The notes beneath the pieces are model-generated. The model searched no databases. It was not told where the DNA came from and saw only the letters and a program-made list of their open reading frames with translations. DNA of 8,610 nt from IMG/VR virus record IMGVR_UViG_2778261121_000004; one strand, 5' to 3'. Of the stretch, positions 886-6,573 are shown piece after piece (within the stretch, counting starts at the first letter, position 1; the number at the start of each line of letters is the position of its first letter). This stretch comes from a virus (lineage: Duplodnaviria > Heunggongvirae > Uroviricota > Caudoviricetes). The translations under genes and the position numbers were made by a program.

Positions 886-910
886 GGTCACTCCCTTTGT
901 GACACCTATA

Positions 911-946
911 AAAAAGGCGCTTCCCCATGCCGAGTAGCGCCTTTTT
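911..946. terminator. Bidirectional rho-independent terminator hairpin, probably the native fis terminator
   Basis: Stem GGCGC (916-920) pairs with GCGCC (937-941), flanked by A5 (911-915) and T5 (942-946). On the minus strand it reads as a GC stem followed by a T-run, between the fis remnant and yhdJ. Confidence 0.55.
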
Positions 947-970
947 AATCAAGCATTTAGCTAACCTGAA

Positions 971-987
971 TTAGTTCATGCCGTATT
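971..987 (-). other. Remnant of fis 3' end (Tyr-Gly-Met-Asn-stop); probable attachment-site core and island boundary
   Basis: Plus-strand ttagttcatgccgtatt is the reverse complement of AATACGGCATGAACTAA, which encodes ...YGMN-stop, the C-terminus of Fis as I recall it. It lies 85 bp upstream of yhdJ, where fis natively sits. The next in-frame codon upstream is a stop (986-988), so only the last codons are present and the sequence diverges into island DNA. Confidence 0.5.
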
Positions 988-1182: not shown

Positions 1183-2406
1183 ATGGCCGGTGGAACGAAC
1201 AAATTAAGCGATGCATCATTGCGTAAAATGATAGGCCGTGCCAGTCCCTCAGACAACTTTTATGCAGATGGGGATGGCTTAAGCATAAAAGTGTCAAAGG
1301 TTGGTGTTTTAACCTGGTACTTCACCTGGCGAACAGGAGGACGCTCAACCGCTCCCCAGCGTCTAAAGCTGGGAAACTATCCAGATCTTTCTATAAAGGC
1401 CGCGAGAGAAAAGCGAGAACAATGCCGCGCGTGGTTGGCTGAAGGGAAAAGTCCAAAGCATCAGTTCAACATTACTATGCAAGAGACGCTAAAGCCGGTG
1501 ACAGTGAAGGAAGCTCTGGAGTACTGGATCACAGAGTACGCCAATGATAACCGGGCGAACGTCGAGCGACATAAGGCTCAATTTGGAAAACACATTTATC
1601 CTTACATCGGAAATCATCCCCTTGCCCTTTGTGAGACGCGCCATTGGCTAGAGTGCTTTGATCGCACAAAGAAAGAATCACCAGTAGCTTCCGGCTATCT
1701 CCTCCAGATGTGTAAGCAGGCGCTTAAATTCTGTCGTGTTCGTCGCTATGCAATAAGTAATGTGCTTGATGATCTCACCGTGCAGGATGTAGGCAAAAAG
1801 CAGAGAAAACGAGATCGGGTACATACCGATCAGGAAATATGTGATATCTGGCATGCCATGTCAGGCAAGAGGTTTAAACCTTACTATGCCTCGTTACTCC
1901 AGATCCTGATCATGTTTGGATGTCGTTCACAAGAGGCGAGATTATCAGAGTGGAGTGAGTGGGATTTCAAAAACTGGATCTGGACTGTTCCAAAAGCACA
2001 TAGTAAAGGTGGTGAAAAAATAGTTCGCCCGGTCCCGGAGGCCGCCAGACCTTTTATCGAATCCTTGTTCAAGCAACATAAAGATAGCGGTCTTCTGTTA
2101 GGCGAAATCAAGAAACCGGAAGCGGTCAGCCAGTGGGGGAGAACTTTGTATAAGAAGCTCGACCATACAGAGTCATGGACTCTTCACGATTTACGCCGGA
2201 CTTTTTCCACTACGCTTAATAATATAGGGATTGCACCACACATTGTAGAGCAACTCTTAGGGCATACCTTAGGCGGCGTGATGGCTATTTATAACCGAAG
2301 TCAGTACCTGCCTGAAAAACTTGACGCACTGAATAAGTGGATGGAACGGTTAGGATTGCTTACCGCCAATCATACGAATGTAACTATTCTAAAGGTAGCA
2401 AAATGA
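1183..2406 (+). CDS. int: Site-specific tyrosine recombinase/integrase, P4-like
   Basis: 407 aa. N-terminal arm-binding-type domain, and C-terminal catalytic signature: box I Arg (FGCRSQEA), HDLRRTF, LLGH, and catalytic Tyr in AIYNRSQY. SD AAAGG sits 9 nt upstream of ATG 1183. Confidence 0.92.
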   Translation: MAGGTNKLSDASLRKMIGRASPSDNFYADGDGLSIKVSKVGVLTWYFTWRTGGRSTAPQRLKLGNYPDLSIKAAREKREQCRAWLAEGKSPKHQFNITMQETLKPVTVKEALEYWITEYANDNRANVERHKAQFGKHIYPYIGNHPLALCETRHWLECFDRTKKESPVASGYLLQMCKQALKFCRVRRYAISNVLDDLTVQDVGKKQRKRDRVHTDQEICDIWHAMSGKRFKPYYASLLQILIMFGCRSQEARLSEWSEWDFKNWIWTVPKAHSKGGEKIVRPVPEAARPFIESLFKQHKDSGLLLGEIKKPEAVSQWGRTLYKKLDHTESWTLHDLRRTFSTTLNNIGIAPHIVEQLLGHTLGGVMAIYNRSQYLPEKLDALNKWMERLGLLTANHTNVTILKVAK

Positions 2407-3158
2407 CAAAAAGTGAATGGCCTCGCGTATATTACCCTCTTGATCTTGCTGCCAAAAAGATGAATTGTTCCACTGAGGATATATTGCATCTAGGGGCCAC
2501 AAATAGACTGGAAATATGCGCATATATTAAAGGTGTGGAATTGTCTCCCGATGGTTTTAACTTTAATGTTACTTTTGATGAAGATGACGAATATGTGTTA
2601 AATGAAATAACTGAAAATAAGTGTATTATAAGTGATCTATATCAGATAATACTTTTTGAATATAATGACAACACAATAATTAGCGAAGTTGATTTGAAAC
2701 CACGTGGGTGGTATGCGAATGATTTAAATGGTTTTTTTGCTATGTGTTCAAATGATTTGGTTGACATTGAACTTTCTGGAGGACTCACTTCCTTTGAAGT
2801 GAATATTAGTGAGTTATCTACCCCTAACATTGATGATAGAAAACCCATTGAAATTACCAATATTAATGATCTTGTCATTACTGAAAACATGCTGGTAGTT
2901 ATGGGCAAGGAGATAGAAAACTTTAATGCATCAGTTTCACCAAGTATTAGAGGTAAAATAGACGCCCCAAAAACAGAGGCTAAAAAAGCAGAACTAATAT
3001 ACTGCCTTTTAAAAATGATCCCTGAGTTATCTGGTGTTGATTTAGATAACACTCCGATAACGAAAATTACCTCCATGATAGAAGAAGTTGCAGCAAAAAA
3101 AGGTGTTGCTCTTCCGTCAACGCACTGGCAAACATGGAAAAGGTATTTACGGAGGTAG
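2403..3158 (+). CDS. Hypothetical protein, AT-rich cargo gene, translationally coupled to int
   Basis: 251 aa. ATG 2403 overlaps the int stop (ATGA, 2403-2406) and has an AAAGG SD. The central part is about 28-32% GC by eye, against about 50% for flanking genes. Composition is rich in D/E/N/I/K, which is protein-like. No motif recognised. Confidence 0.6.
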   Translation: MTKSEWPRVYYPLDLAAKKMNCSTEDILHLGATNRLEICAYIKGVELSPDGFNFNVTFDEDDEYVLNEITENKCIISDLYQIILFEYNDNTIISEVDLKPRGWYANDLNGFFAMCSNDLVDIELSGGLTSFEVNISELSTPNIDDRKPIEITNINDLVITENMLVVMGKEIENFNASVSPSIRGKIDAPKTEAKKAELIYCLLKMIPELSGVDLDNTPITKITSMIEEVAAKKGVALPSTHWQTWKRYLRR

Positions 3159-3160
3159 CA

Positions 3161-3190
3161 TGTGATATCACATATAGGTTGTGTGATATC
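3161..3190. promoter_or_regulatory. Operator-like palindrome TGTGATATCACA plus a repeated half-site, upstream of alpA
   Basis: Perfect 12-bp palindrome at 3161-3172. The half-site TGTGATATC recurs at 3182-3190, 21 bp away (two helical turns). Confidence 0.4.
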
Positions 3191-3254
3191 GAACATTGCT
3201 GAACGTGATTTAATAAGAATGCCCTCGAACTTCAATAAACGAGGGCAATACTTA

Positions 3255-3479
3255 ATGAACCAACTTAACACACACCAAAATCATTCCGATCGTATTATCC
3301 GTGAAACCGAATGCCGCCACATGACTGGCCTATGCCGTACTACTCGCTATCTCATGGAGAAAAAGGGGGATTTTCCGGCGCGTCGCCAGCTCGGGGGGCG
3401 TTCTGTCGGGTGGCTCTTATCGGAAATTACCACTTGGCAGTTAAGCCAACCTAAAGTAGAAACCGGCAAAGCGGCATAG
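3255..3479 (+). CDS. alpA: AlpA-family phage transcriptional regulator (excisionase-like HTH)
   Basis: 74 aa. The C-terminal half (GGRSVGWLLSEITTWQLSQ) matches the AlpA family's conserved (G)xRSVGW...EIxxW motif. SD GAGGG (3241-3245) lies 9 nt before ATG 3255. The track's longer GTG-3162 form would add 31 uncharacteristic residues and bury the palindrome in coding sequence. Confidence 0.8.
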   Translation: MNQLNTHQNHSDRIIRETECRHMTGLCRTTRYLMEKKGDFPARRQLGGRSVGWLLSEITTWQLSQPKVETGKAA

Positions 3480-3496
3480 GTGCGGATATGTCACAT

Positions 3497-3524
3497 AAAA
3501 CAAAAGCGGCCTTGCAGGGCCGCC
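3497..3524 (-). terminator. Rho-independent terminator for the minus-strand RHH gene
   Basis: GC hairpin GCGGCC (3507-3512) / GGCCGC (3519-3524) with a 6-nt loop. On the minus strand it is followed by TTTTGTTTTA (complement of 3497-3506). No T-run on the plus side. Confidence 0.45.
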
Positions 3525-3615
3525 AGTGCAATCACACTAAACCTATTCATATCACCAGGCTGATCGCTGGTGGTCAAATCGTGAGCAAAGCTCTAAAAAT
3601 AGCTTCGGAACAAAA

Positions 3616-3795
3616 TCAGCCTTTTGGCTCGATGCCACGTTGCTTCAGTTCTTTACGGACAATTCGTTTGATCCAAGCGGCTAAAGACTCGTCACCGTCC
3701 TGTTGTTGGGCTTTTTCCATTAATTCTCTGAGTTCCGGATCAAGCCGGAATTGGAATGGAGGATTGCCTCGCCTTTCATTTTTGTGTGTTGACAC
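3616..3795 (-). CDS. Small ribbon-helix-helix-like DNA-binding protein; candidate repressor of the island
   Basis: Absent from the ORF track. Minus-strand translation is VSTHKNERRGNPPFQFRLDPELRELMEKAQQQDGDESLAAWIKRIVRKELKQRGIEPKG (59 aa), with a beta-strand then two helices as in RHH proteins. GTG start at 3795 has an AGGTG SD 8 nt upstream. It is the only minus-strand gene in the island and is divergent from the downstream operon. Confidence 0.5.
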   Translation of the reverse strand: MSTHKNERRGNPPFQFRLDPELRELMEKAQQQDGDESLAAWIKRIVRKELKQRGIEPKG

Positions 3796-3841
3796 GTCAA
3801 TTACACCTGTTGTAGTGTGTTTATGTGTAATGACACATTAC
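3789..3841. promoter_or_regulatory. Divergent promoter/operator region between the RHH gene and the Icd-like operon
   Basis: Inverted repeats TTGAC-ac-GTCAA (3789-3800, overlapping the RHH start) and GTAATG-aca-CATTAC (3827-3841). TGACAC recurs at 3790-3795 and 3831-3836, and there are several TGTGT runs. Confidence 0.35.
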
Positions 3842-3924
3842 ATACAAATGACAAAAAAGACAACGCCCCGGAGTGCGGGAACACTGCCGAGGCGTCTAAC
3901 CAAGACGTTAAATGGAGTAACGCT

Positions 3925-4131
3925 ATGGCTTCCGCTAATAGTACCACATCCGCGCGCCCTGAAAATCGCGTGTTTCTCTTCCTTGCCTTATCCCGTGCCG
4001 ATCAGAACGCCAGGCCACACCGTGAGCAAGTTATTGCCACCAGCGAACGCGAAGCGCGTCTTATGCTGGTGGGCCGCTACGTGCTTTCTTTTGCTGGTCG
4101 CCTGCCAGTATCAGAGGCTTATCATGAATAA
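3925..4131 (+). CDS. Small protein, Icd-like (P4 immunity-region cell-division-inhibitor-like) family, paralogue 1
   Basis: 68 aa. SD GGAG (3914-3917) lies 7 nt before ATG 3925. It shares the pattern F-x-[FL]-F-x-A...AD...A-x-[ST]-E-x-[ED]-AR...L-x-G...L-[ST]-F-x-A-[RK]-L with the 4519 gene. The family name is from memory, not a search. Confidence 0.6.
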   Translation: MASANSTTSARPENRVFLFLALSRADQNARPHREQVIATSEREARLMLVGRYVLSFAGRLPVSEAYHE

Positions 4132-4522
4132 GCCAATTACCGCTGCTGCTTACCTGCTTCACACTGCTGATATGTGCGCCTCGCAGGTGTGCCAACTGGT
4201 TGAATGCCACGACGCCGCCGGACACCATGCGCTATGTCAGACCTTATCGGCGGGGCTAATCGCGCTTAAGCTGGCTTGTTATGCGGATATCCAGTCTTCA
4301 CCAGACGCGGAAACAATACCGCCGCTTAGCCTGGAGGCTTACTGGCCTGATAATAGTTTGACGCTGGAATACTGCGAATCACTGGTAAAGGTGCTGTCTG
4401 TTGATGCCTTGCCCCGTGAAGTGATCCAGCCGCTTACCGGGCTGTTGCATGACCTGGTGAATATGCTGGCCGACCAGTGGAAAGAAGAACTGAAAACCAC
4501 AGATGCAGGGGGGCAATCATGA
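4124..4522 (+). CDS. Hypothetical protein (132 aa)
   Basis: SD AGAGG sits 6 nt before ATG 4124. It overlaps the upstream stop by 8 bp and the downstream start by ATGA. The upstream part of the track's 344-aa ORF (3488-4123) has non-protein-like composition and overlaps the minus-strand RHH gene. Confidence 0.6.
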   Translation: MNKPITAAAYLLHTADMCASQVCQLVECHDAAGHHALCQTLSAGLIALKLACYADIQSSPDAETIPPLSLEAYWPDNSLTLEYCESLVKVLSVDALPREVIQPLTGLLHDLVNMLADQWKEELKTTDAGGQS

Positions 4523-4809
4523 ATAAGTTCACCTGGCTTTTTCAGGCTATCTACGCCGACCACCAGCCCCCTGTTGTTATGCGCACACAGGCTGATACCG
4601 AAGAGGATGCCCGCCGCCAGCTTTCCGGCGCATGGTCCTTAACATTTGTCGCCAAACTTAATACGGCCTGCCCGGTTAACCATCAGTTTTACGCAGAAGA
4701 AGATCAATCCATGTGGGGGATCGTTGCCACCAGGCTGACTCATGACGACATCACGCAGTGGGGCAATGAGGTGTTCGGGAATCGTAATAACTTGCGAGCT
4801 ACCTGGTAA
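4519..4809 (+). CDS. Small protein, Icd-like family, paralogue 2
   Basis: 96 aa. SD AGGGGGG sits 5 nt before ATG 4519, which overlaps the upstream stop (ATGA). FTWLFQAIYADHQ...TEEDARRQLSGAWSLTFVAKL aligns with VFLFLALSRADQN...SEREARLMLVGRYVLSFAGRL of the 3925 gene. Confidence 0.6.
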   Translation: MNKFTWLFQAIYADHQPPVVMRTQADTEEDARRQLSGAWSLTFVAKLNTACPVNHQFYAEEDQSMWGIVATRLTHDDITQWGNEVFGNRNNLRATW

Positions 4810-4837
4810 TTCTTCCGGCTAAATAAGGCATTAAATA

Positions 4838-5161
4838 ATGGCTAAAAAAATCAATCAGGTTAAACCTGAGGGCAAAACTCACCCTTTAATTGAGATTAAC
4901 ACCCGCTGGAAAGATAACTGGGGTATCAAAATCACTATTTGCAAGGTGGAAGAAAACCGCGTGATGTATATCCGCGACGGGTACGAACATGAATGCGTAT
5001 GCTCACCGGATCGCCTGCGTCGTGAGTTTTCTTTCCTCCCGGAAGAGAGCAAGGAATGTCAGGCTGCTGCCATCGCCAGAGGCCGTAAACGCGCCGCCGA
5101 ACTGCGTCATAGTTTGCCGGTTACTTTTGGATCGGCTGGCTGGGATAAGGGGCTGGTATGA
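4838..5161 (+). CDS. Small protein paralogous to the N-terminal domain of the downstream Rep ATPase
   Basis: 107 aa. SD AAGG sits 9 nt upstream. The motifs W-K-D-N-W-G-I-K-I and RHSLPVTFGSAGWD match W-E-E-D-W-G-L-K-I and RHNLPITYGSDGFD in the N-terminus of the 5158 gene. The stop overlaps the next start (ATGA). Confidence 0.65.
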   Translation: MAKKINQVKPEGKTHPLIEINTRWKDNWGIKITICKVEENRVMYIRDGYEHECVCSPDRLRREFSFLPEESKECQAAAIARGRKRAAELRHSLPVTFGSAGWDKGLV

Positions 5162-6573
5162 AGAACGCGCCGAATCTTAAACATCAACCGAAAGATAAAC
5201 ATGTTGAGGTCATTATCTTTGCCGGGGCTGATGCCTACGATCACGCTAAAACATGGGAAGAAGACTGGGGATTAAAAATTGCCGCAGATAAAACACCGCC
5301 TGTCTGGCTGGGGCCAAAGCAACTGGCAGAGCTGGCGAACCTGAACATTATCGACCAAGGGCGTAAGTACGCCCGCGTCTATCTTGCCGGAGACATTGAA
5401 TCTGTCCGGATTAACTCCATTGCTGAAAAACTGGCGCTGGCGGGCGTAGAGGAAGCGAAATTATATAAGGGAATACCTGATAAGCACCCGGAAGACTGGC
5501 ATGATTATCTGGGACGCCTACGGGGCGCTGCGGAGGTGCAGGAGGATGCGAATACTACCCGGCATAACTTGCCGATCACTTATGGATCAGATGGATTTGA
5601 CCGGGAGCAGGACTACACGCTGAAGAATTATCTTCCCGCTAACAGTCTGTGCAGTATTTACGGCCCCAGCGGAAGTTATAAAAGTTTCCTTGCTGTGTCG
5701 TGGGCCTGCCATATTGCCGCAGATCGTAAGTGGGCTGGTAAAAGTGTTTCTGGTGGTACGGTTATGTACATTGTCGGGGAAGGTGGGATCGGTGTGCCTC
5801 GCCGGGTAAAGGCATGGGAAAATATTCACCAAAGGAAGGTAACCAACCTGGCCCTGGTTAACCGTCCTGTTTTTCCGGTGCGTTGCGAGGAGGTGCAGGA
5901 AGTGGTTAAAGCTGCGCGTGATATCCAGAAAGAAAAGGGGCAGCCGGTACAGTTGATTGTTATTGATACTCTTGCTCGTTGTTTTGGTGGTAACGATGAG
6001 AACGACGCGAGAGACATGGGGGCATTTATCGAAGGGTGTGACACCATTAAACGAGAAACAGGGGCCACTGTGCTGGTGGTACATCATTCGGGGAAAGACG
6101 ATAGTAAAGGCGCTCGCGGATCCAGTTCGTTCCGTGCCGCTCTGGATGCAGAGTTTAATGTTAGGCGTGAAGGAGATGGTGGGGCCATTATACTTACCTG
6201 TACAAAAATGAAGGATGCAGAAGAACCGCGCCCCGCCGCCTTTGACCTGAAAACGGTGAACCTGTTTACTGATCGCGATGGTGAAGCAGTTGCTTCTCTT
6301 GTGCTACATGATGTGGAGCGTGAACCACGCGACATTGATCCAGAACTGGCTGACGTCAAACACCTGACTGAGAACCATGCGGCGTTGTGGCAATGTATTC
6401 GGAGCAGAAAGGCCAAAGGTGAGGTATGCAACCGTGCTGTGCTGCGTGACGATATCATAGCGATGGAAGGGGAGAACGGGCGGAAAGCCTTTACACGTTG
6501 GCTGAATAAGCTGGTCAAAGATGGGCTAATCAAAATTGATGACAGTGGCGAAGTAATTATGCTGAAGGGCTGA
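5158..6573 (+). CDS. Replication initiator ATPase/helicase, RecA-like P-loop NTPase (RepA/AAA_25-type) with N-terminal domain of unknown function
   Basis: 471 aa. P-loop GPSGSYKS (around nt 5662-5685), Walker B QLIVIDT, and the downstream VLVVHHSGKD motif typical of RepA/DnaB-like RecA-fold ATPases. SD AAGGGG sits 5 nt before ATG. The gene is followed immediately by an iteron array. Confidence 0.85.
   Translation: MKNAPNLKHQPKDKHVEVIIFAGADAYDHAKTWEEDWGLKIAADKTPPVWLGPKQLAELANLNIIDQGRKYARVYLAGDIESVRINSIAEKLALAGVEEAKLYKGIPDKHPEDWHDYLGRLRGAAEVQEDANTTRHNLPITYGSDGFDREQDYTLKNYLPANSLCSIYGPSGSYKSFLAVSWACHIAADRKWAGKSVSGGTVMYIVGEGGIGVPRRVKAWENIHQRKVTNLALVNRPVFPVRCEEVQEVVKAARDIQKEKGQPVQLIVIDTLARCFGGNDENDARDMGAFIEGCDTIKRETGATVLVVHHSGKDDSKGARGSSSFRAALDAEFNVRREGDGGAIILTCTKMKDAEEPRPAAFDLKTVNLFTDRDGEAVASLVLHDVEREPRDIDPELADVKHLTENHAALWQCIRSRKAKGEVCNRAVLRDDIIAMEGENGRKAFTRWLNKLVKDGLIKIDDSGEVIMLKG

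Follow-up and report, generated by a model that had tools for sequence, protein, structure and literature searches.

The window analysed here is a stretch of 8,610 nucleotides from a virus of the Caudoviricetes (IMG/VR record IMGVR_UViG_2778261121_000004), in which three overlapping genes, icdL1, orf132 and icdL2, lead into a replication module (Table 1). An earlier note on this DNA, made from the sequence alone, had described the three as one tightly coupled operon adjoining the replication genes, and this description holds: icdL1 and orf132 share the eight base pairs ATGAATAA, and orf132 and icdL2 share the four base pairs ATGA. A purine-rich Shine-Dalgarno-like stretch lies 5' of each of the three genes, with a G-run before icdL2, and the 12-mer ATCATGAATAAG is common to both junctions. 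A gap of 28 nt separates icdL2 from the DUF4222 gene that follows. Related elements, cited below by locus numbers beginning with L, have the 8-bp ATGAATAA at the orf132/icdL2 junction too. The G-run of the window (approximately 4503-4508) holds one G more than that of the IMG/VR contig L067 and the Salmonella copy, which cuts the overlap to ATGA and alters the C-terminus of the orf132 product from ...GGNHE* in the relatives to ...GGQS*. All three genes are under purifying selection. Compared with L067, icdL1 shows 2 synonymous and 0 non-synonymous changes, icdL2 shows 3 and 0, and orf132 shows 5 and 9; compared with Salmonella L201, the ratio of non-synonymous to synonymous substitution rates (dN/dS) is 0.17 for icdL1, 0.33 for orf132 and 0.22, at dS 0.32, for icdL2. 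The chromosome of E. coli GPEC1186 contains the window at 100% identity; RefSeq gives the identical three coding sequence calls there and names both small products 'host cell division inhibitor Icd-like protein'. We identify the window, from sequence features set out further below, as an 8.5-kb phage satellite of the phage-inducible chromosomal island (PICI) type, integrated at fis, and the three genes as the head of its early operon, the immunity-controlled operon of replication.

The assignment of the small proteins to the phage Icd/Kil family, and of the genes to an operon head, is the part of this interpretation that we hold with high confidence. The NCBIfam model NF033153 (phage_ICD_like), for which the curated cut-off is 25 bits, matches IcdL1 with 71.7 bits (E = 3.7e-20) and IcdL2 with 48.4 bits (E = 6.9e-13); the controls P1 Icd, P4 Kil region and N15 gene 32 score 52.6, 73.9 and 64.6 bits. 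The two proteins align with each other at 30% identity over 56 amino acids (E = 8e-5). The claim of the earlier note that both belong to one Icd-like family is thus upheld by the pairwise and the profile comparison alike. The shared motif given there survives in outline, roughly as [FW]-L-F-x-A, AD, [ST]-E-x-[ED]-A-R and L-[ST]-F, and is inexact as first written; the F, A, E, A and R of the F...A...E..AR core are invariant in six aligned members. Kinship with the Ash family, against which a search had been suggested, found no support, as PF10554 (Phage_ASH) gave no match and no Pfam family matched any of the three proteins at E<=1. Identity to P1 Icd, the founding member, is 33% for IcdL1 and 29% for IcdL2, and a tblastn search with IcdL1 leads to P4 positions 8183-8362 and to N15 gene 32. 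The model of the Icd-like fold consists of an N-terminal beta-beta-alpha-beta domain with a predicted local distance difference test score of about 70-86 and a tail scoring below 50, and IcdL2 is likewise predicted to combine this N-terminal domain with a low-confidence C-terminal extension. Foldseek returned no PDB match to the fold at E<=0.001, and no PDB sequence matched either. Taken together, the sequence comparisons indicate that icdL1 and icdL2 are real, selected members of the family. Their label 'division inhibitor' is inherited from P1 Icd.

Table 1. Features of the window, with positions counted from its first nucleotide
Feature	Position	Strand	Basis or remark
Attachment (att) identity block TACGGCATGAACTAA, copy of the fis 3' end; left island boundary	971-985	-	consensus from PMC10111431
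Tyrosine integrase	1183-2406	+	Pfam domains (Arm-DNA-bind_3 + Phage_integrase, PF00589), RefSeq
AlpA-family helix-turn-helix regulator/excisionase, counterpart of P4 vis	3255-3479	+	PF05930, E 1.4e-16
344-codon open frame, eta-like nested reading frame	3488-4522	+	list of open reading frames
Terminator-like GC hairpin and T-run, 3' of the YlcI-like gene	3495-3524	-	T-run on the minus strand; none on the plus strand
YlcI/YnfO-like gene (59 amino acids), divergent from the operon, candidate repressor	3616-3795	-	NF041551, phrog_228
Divergent control region	3789-3843		palindromes and candidate promoter, read from the sequence
icdL1, Icd/Kil-like protein of 68 amino acids, short subtype (type A), first cistron	3925-4131	+	ATG at 3925, stop ending at 4131
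orf132, protein of 132 amino acids, predicted four-helix bundle	4124-4522	+	ATG at 4124, stop ending at 4522
icdL2, Icd-like protein of 96 amino acids, long subtype (type B)	4519-4809	+	ATG at 4519, stop ending at 4809
DUF4222 protein, first gene of the replication module	4838-5161	+	PF13973, E 1.2e-13
RepA-type helicase (AAA_25)	5158-6573	+	Pfam, RefSeq

To judge by their sequences, the two Icd-like genes represent two old subtypes and no recent duplication. IcdL1 is 47-63% identical to P4 Kil (47.5% to the Kil region), N15 Icd and the L070 protein; for IcdL2, identities of 42-58% were obtained with the type B copies of L069, L149 and the Klebsiella phage P12620-1 record. We surveyed 80 IMG/VR loci of type A, the short form that resembles icdL1 and P4 Kil, and 53 loci of type B, the form that resembles icdL2 and has a C-terminal extension. 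A C4 RNA lies 60-180 nt upstream of the type A gene in 74 of the 80 loci, with model scores of 60-98 bits. In the remaining 6, which are those closest to icdL1, the place upstream is taken by a small divergent open reading frame (ORF); this is YlcI-like in 4 of them, while those of L070 and L071 lack a YlcI match and resemble ribbon-helix-helix (RHH) proteins by eye only. Among type B loci, C4 is present in 2 of 53 and a YlcI-like gene in at least 25. By these counts, each subtype has a regulatory partner of its own. In the window, the partner of type B, ylcI, is joined to a type A gene in first and a type B gene in third place.

The earlier note had regarded the pair as a local duplication. 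According to this explanation, a division-inhibitor gene was recently doubled in place, producing a double-dose host-takeover module with the 132-amino-acid gene caught between the copies. Both copies do match one family model, share motifs and lie in one coupled operon. Their identity, however, is only 30%, and neither their lengths nor their C-termini agree; both have nearer relatives in other elements than in each other; the subtypes occur singly elsewhere and keep different regulatory partners; and there are relatives that carry icdL1 and orf132 without icdL2. We therefore consider a recent duplication highly improbable.

An Icd/Kil-like gene was found in every related island examined, and its stop codon overlaps the start of the next gene in 91 of 94 ORFs, the sole exceptions being the icdL2 copies of the window lineage. 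The gene-order comparison thus identifies an Icd-like head with a stop/start overlap as the family norm, and the impression that an Icd-like gene is out of place beside replication genes is not sustained, since the early operons of P4, P1, N15 and related islands regularly begin with one. The second copy is indeed uncommon. Among approximately 130 loci, operons with a pair of Icd-like genes were confined to about 3 independent island types: the window lineage (with the IMG/VR contig L067/L148 and Salmonella L201), L069/L150, and L149. Type A precedes type B in all three, with different genes between. Two further candidates for a double operon were rejected, as L135 repeats an entire P4-like segment in tandem and L200 has one gene with a frameshift. 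On this sequence survey, the second Icd-like copy is rare and the operon-head position is ordinary for the family.

Upstream of icdL1, the divergent YlcI-like gene sits where the isrK/C4 RNA lies in relatives. Its product matches NF041551 (E = 9e-5) and, weakly, Arc-like phrog_228 (E = 2e-6) and a VapB-antitoxin-like family (E = 0.005), the last two of which suggest an RHH-type fold. Rfam searches for C4 and isrK RNAs (RF01695, RF01394, RF03163) gave none in the window at E<=1. Our own C4 covariance model, built from ten C4 copies, found no copy in the window with default filters, and with the filters off the best score is 9.2 bits, versus 60-98 for true copies. The upstream target element isrK/seqA (RF01394, RF03163) is present in P4, N15 and L006. 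Of the components of a C4 immunity module, C4 and isrK/seqA are thus, by these searches, absent from the window, and the overlap of the first cistron with the next gene is provided by icdL1 and not by icdL2, an internal cistron.

The intergenic region between ylcI and icdL1 spans 129 bp and contains two palindromes, TTGACACGTCAA (3789-3800) and TGTAATGACACATTACA (3827-3843), together with a candidate plus-strand promoter, read by eye, with the -35 element TTGACA at 3789-3794 and the -10 element TGTAGT at 3811-3816 (TGTAAT in L008). The palindromes are kept in L008 and in plasmid copies, and a different ylcI allele, in L069, is flanked by different palindromes, as would be expected of allele-specific operators. 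The YlcI-like gene with its control region (window 3616-3930, approximately 82% identity) is present in 185 of 5,426 complete E. coli genomes, with approximately 32 plasmid copies. In one of the latter, pECO-6dfa (L002 5001-5316), the module is cut by an IS3 fragment and lies directly upstream of a WYL (BrxR-like) gene and BREX. We have moderate confidence that the YlcI-like protein acts as the repressor of the operon, as these sequence features suggest.

An alternative source of control is an unrecognised RNA regulator of non-C4 type, located in the leader (3823-3924) or inside orf132, which would govern the Icd-like genes in place of the YlcI-like protein. The Icd-like family is classically RNA-controlled, and the leader segment 3856-3924, which includes a GC hairpin, is kept alongside different ylcI alleles. 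A structured RNA leader at 3823-3945 was nevertheless rejected: its fold has z = -1.7, and 11 of 200 shuffles fold as well, so that it is not significantly stable. We also dropped a cis-antisense RNA with its end at the hairpin 3888-3859 of the minus strand, since the T-run is not conserved in L008, L002 or L069. As there are also no Rfam matches and orf132 is conserved at the protein level (indels in multiples of codons, dN/dS as given above), a hidden RNA regulator appears improbable.

The layout is best understood by comparison with the known systems P4, N15 and P1, which served us as controls. Each of them has an Icd-like ORF that is closely preceded by a C4-type antisense RNA (RF01695) and whose stop overlaps the start of the next gene; C4 is preceded by isrK/seqA in P4 and N15, and by a1/b1 sites in P1. 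The left operon of P4 comprises vis, eta/kil (with seqA and the CI RNA inside eta), epsilon, orf151 and alpha. P4 Kil corresponds to the C-terminal 65 amino acids of the old 'cI' ORF (NF033153, E = 7.8e-21). Re-derivation of eta gave a frame open over 217 codons, in which the three ATGs at 199, 198 and 197 codons fall across the vis stop; this agrees with the published nested eta/kil genes. Translation of eta/kil prevents Rho-dependent termination, according to the summary in PMC10111431 of Forti et al. 1999; the mechanism of the CI RNA is described in PMC4825925. The window resembles P4 in having an AlpA-family gene, a long frame from its stop, a small Icd-like cistron, an 8-bp overlap, a payload gene and then a replicase. 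By contrast with P4, neither CI/C4 RNA nor seqA/isrK was found in the window, and the divergent YlcI-like gene stands there instead; the long frame ends in the 132-amino-acid gene, whereas that of P4 ends in the Icd-like gene; the gene after icdL1 is unrelated to epsilon or orf151; and there is a second Icd-like gene. The island annotation includes no sid, psu or delta in its 8.5 kb, and the replicase is of the RepA/AAA_25 type rather than the alpha primase-helicase of P4-like satellites.

In P1, the immI region consists of c4 RNA, icd and ant1/ant2, and the secondary immunity region of N15 consists of CA RNA, gene 32/icd, gp31 and an antirepressor. The founding Icd of P1, 73 amino acids in length, matches NF033153 (E = 3.4e-14) and aligns with the two window proteins at 29-33% identity; it is a first cistron, and icd overlaps its payload gene by ATGA. 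N15 gene 32 carries the Icd-like domain. The annotation of the P1 record states that C4 pairs with a2/b2 and represses the translation of icd and ant, and that icd is 'apparently required for expression of ant'. Payload and control in P1 and N15 are an antirepressor and a C4-type RNA pairing at the icd ribosome-binding site; in the window, where C4-type RNA was not found, the payload is a predicted four-helix-bundle protein together with replication genes. The controls also expose an error of labelling. PHROGs (phrog_1743, phrog_6928) and RefSeq call Icd/Kil-like ORFs 'transcriptional repressor', as in P4 (NC_001609 8168-8584) and N15 gene 32. This label is a misannotation passed on from the early ORF calls 'cI' in P4 and 'cA' in N15, because the immunity factor there is a C4-type RNA inside or just upstream of those ORFs.

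The eta-like frame of the window begins 9 nt past the alpA stop, passes antisense through the YlcI-like gene, then over the promoter region and, in a different register, over icdL1, and coincides at its end with the reading frame of orf132. When ylcI and icdL1 are reshuffled synonymously and the spacers are shuffled, the chance of the frame staying open is approximately 1e-5. An open frame crosses the divergent YlcI-like gene in 27 of 33 loci that possess one, and 24 of these 27 frames lead without a shift into a known coding sequence. In the window lineage this is the orf132-family gene; in type B loci it is the Icd-like domain, which gives an Icd-like protein with a long extension at its N-terminus. 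It is possible, although we consider it unlikely, that a subgroup of enterobacterial satellites has replaced the C4/CI RNA switch by a protein switch, with a YlcI/Arc-like gene lying antisense in an eta-like frame and read-through flipping the operon. Read-through from int/alpA would then silence the repressor gene by convergent transcription and protect the transcript; the first product would shift from a free Icd-like protein to an extended orf132 product or an Icd-like fusion, and each Icd-like subtype would act as an effector on a target of its own.

The region of the three genes is mosaic. Window positions 3880-5500, from icdL1 to the first approximately 115 replicase codons, have 96% nucleotide identity to L067/L201, whose integrase, AlpA, ylcI allele and replicase catalytic domain (D5/DUF5906) are all unlike those of the window. 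L008 matches window 3616-3930, the match ending exactly at the icdL1 start codon, where L008 continues with a gene of type B. L068 has icdL1 and the replication module in common with the window and lacks icdL2. These matches mark the zone from the promoter to DUF4222 as a cassette region, in which the icdL1-orf132-icdL2-DUF4222 block, as the alignments indicate, moves as a unit among islands differing in integrase and replicase. The repeated ATCATGAATAAG junction is likely to be a recombination joint. Downstream, the replicase N-terminus (5148-5511, approximately 115 codons) has 87-96% DNA identity to replicases with other catalytic domains, namely DUF927 in L006, D5/DUF5906 in L067/L201 and a 711-amino-acid primase in L149, and behaves as a swappable adaptor domain travelling with DUF4222.

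Mosaicism of this kind could have left icdL2 as a functionless passenger, brought in by recombination of two island types, with icdL1 alone of any consequence. The sister island L068 does without icdL2, and icdL2 has lost the overlap with the next gene that most relatives keep. Against this, the icdL2 frame is intact and has a Shine-Dalgarno-like G-run upstream; it shows no non-synonymous change relative to L067, and its dN/dS relative to L201 is low at an appreciable dS; and the order of type A followed by type B recurs in three island types (the window, L069 and L149) with different genes between. In view of this constraint, it is improbable that icdL2 is a mere passenger.

The middle gene was said in the earlier note to have no assignable function, and our searches lead to the same result: orf132 has no Pfam, PHROG or NCBIfam family and no PDB relative, and the fold search with its model, predicted to be a four-helix bundle, gave no clue. 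Homology to P4 epsilon or orf151 was rejected (hhalign probability 0.1%). The family is rare, with 6 clusters in an index of 5.8 billion proteins and 87 representatives in an exhaustive search; its members differ by whole-codon indels and retain an invariant LTGLLHDLVNMLADQ motif. In L005, L006, L010, L070 and L071, the orf132-family gene follows a type A Icd-like gene. By contrast, in 37 of 57 genome loci, mostly on Enterobacter, Leclercia and Lelliottia chromosomes, a member of approximately 151 amino acids directly follows a C4 RNA, with no Icd-like gene and often in several copies per genome. The occurrence of the family behind an Icd-like gene or directly behind C4 marks orf132 as a recurrent first or second payload of C4/Icd-type leaders. 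In the chromosomal loci L011-L066 (Enterobacter, Leclercia, Lelliottia and Silvania), the lone gene begins approximately 55 nt after C4 (for example L012 4800-5396 and L016 4800-5396), with no Icd-like gene or replicase nearby; there are 4-5 such loci in Leclercia adecarboxylata MGG-10dp. The N-terminus of these lone proteins (MATIPT...) resembles the Icd-like N-terminus, and the combination of C4 and a lone orf132-family gene looks like an orphan two-part module.

The association of orf132 with Icd-like genes also bears on the possibility that the operon is an abortive-infection or superinfection-exclusion device. Toxic Icd-like effectors would be freed when a phage protein inactivates the repressor, orf132 would encode a modulator or antidote, and two effectors would broaden the response or back each other up. 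P4 Kil is lethal on overexpression (PMC10111431), and members of the orf132 family invariably accompany Icd-like or C4 leaders. Members that stand alone behind C4 without an Icd-like gene, however, are a poor fit for an obligate antidote, and the operon runs directly into replication genes, which satellite induction would explain at least equally well. Such a device is a doubtful, if credible, explanation of the operon as a whole.

Our preferred interpretation remains that of an early-operon head of a satellite. In the resident state, the YlcI-like protein would repress the promoter at about 3789-3816 through the palindromes and keep the operon off, as a protein substitute for C4 RNA immunity. 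On derepression, icdL1 would be translated first, and its stop/start overlap would drive the expression of orf132, icdL2, DUF4222 and the helicase; translation of icdL1 would keep the transcript covered by ribosomes against Rho, as in P4 kil. The Icd-like products probably arrest division or growth, by analogy with P1 Icd, P4 Kil and an effector from ECOR61, and the arrest would either hold the cell during island replication or abort the infection. The best independent support for toxicity comes from ECOR61, where a block of six genes, one of them for a primase, encodes an Icd-like protein that is the likely cell-death effector (Silas et al., bioRxiv 10.1101/2023.04.06.535777). The window resembles that block in setting Icd-like genes within a multi-gene unit with replication functions, a likeness of layout. 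The long N-terminal extension of the ECOR61 protein corresponds to the eta-like frames of type B loci; in the window, by contrast, the long frame joins orf132 and not an Icd-like domain. Read-through from the int/alpA unit, to extend the analogy with P4, may be translated in the 3488-4522 frame, which would skip icdL1, counteract transcription of ylcI and produce an orf132 protein with an extended N-terminus. The second Icd-like gene may have been gained by cassette exchange at the ATCATGAATAAG junctions, as an effector of different specificity. Our confidence in the eta-like switch and in this specific role of icdL2 is low, and for the explanation as a whole, mechanism included, we find the balance to be even.

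Several observations weigh against this interpretation. The mechanism for the island and its proteins is built on sequence and analogy, the part of Rho being extrapolated from P4, and fold searches with the Icd-like and orf132 models yielded no functional clue. The match of the YlcI-like protein to its NCBIfam model, at 22.4 bits, falls under the cut-off of 30, and a consensus promoter scan did not list the candidate promoter at 3789-3816. As icdL2, unlike 91 of 94 relatives, does not overlap the next gene, a pure role as leader cistron does not fit it, and its absence from L068 marks it as dispensable for the island. Finally, 6 of 33 related loci have no long frame, which could be tolerated rather than used.

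The remainder of the island agrees with a large class of fis-integrated PICIs, from which the fis attachment block is known (PMC10111431). A second exact copy of TACGGCATGAACTAA lies outside the window, 8.5 kb from the first, at the true fis stop (L001 19870-19884), and yhdJ is on the far side, so that the island is flanked by the block between fis and yhdJ. Its gene order is integrase, a hypothetical protein of 251 amino acids, AlpA-family gene, the divergent YlcI/YnfO-like gene, icdL1, orf132, icdL2, DUF4222, RepA/AAA_25 and three more. An inward-facing tyrosine integrase, an AlpA-family gene and a replicase of its own are all present. The arrangement resembles that of fis-integrated PICIs of Gram-negative bacteria surveyed by the Williams laboratory (PMC10111431), with the attachment block at the fis stop, yhdJ beyond it, and inward int and alpA followed by Bro/immunity and replication zones. 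It differs from other fis PICIs in its small size of 8.5 kb, in having only two short Rha-family pseudogene fragments, situated near the right end, in the YlcI-like gene standing in place of C4/isrK and in its two Icd-like genes; C4/isrK homologues have already been noted in some PICIs (PMC10111431).

Several further features of the island were observed. The gap between integrase and alpA (2407-3254) contains no int-alpA RNA (RF02996) at E<=1; in relatives, this RNA directly follows the integrase (L005 3231-3296, L007 1235-1302, L008 4124-4190 and L010 541-608). A weak Rfam match to STnc40 (910-977, minus strand, E = 0.52) corresponds to a strong terminator hairpin after the duplicated fis 3' end at the island edge. 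The plus-strand gene at 7154-7327 encodes a product of 57 amino acids that RefSeq labels 'antitermination protein NusG', a label implausible at that size, and PHROGs gave no match. A hypothetical protein of 317 amino acids (7657-8610, plus strand, running off the window end) weakly matches the major head family phrog_617 (E = 3.7e-6) over the C-terminal part of the profile only; it is kept in L201 together with the upstream genes for 71 and 57 amino acids. This protein, possibly capsid-related, is the sole hint of a late gene in an island that is very small.

The feature is ordinary in kind, an Icd/Kil head of a satellite early operon, already named by RefSeq, and is an uncommon variant in three respects: two subtypes lie in one operon, a repressor-like gene takes the place of the RNA switch, and the long nested frame runs into orf132. 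Icd/Kil-like genes are annotated as 'division inhibitor' in most enterobacterial P4-like and PICI satellites, and almost nothing is known of them beyond P1 and P4. The locus exposes, in 'transcriptional repressor', an annotation error that has spread among these proteins. It also presents one operon head in two interchangeable control versions, RNA-based and protein-based, and an Icd-like gene in two subtypes, each with its preferred control version; a few islands combine these parts. Such natural chimeras provide a means to ask what the Icd-like gene does, whether it is its translation or its product that matters, and how satellites sense their helpers.

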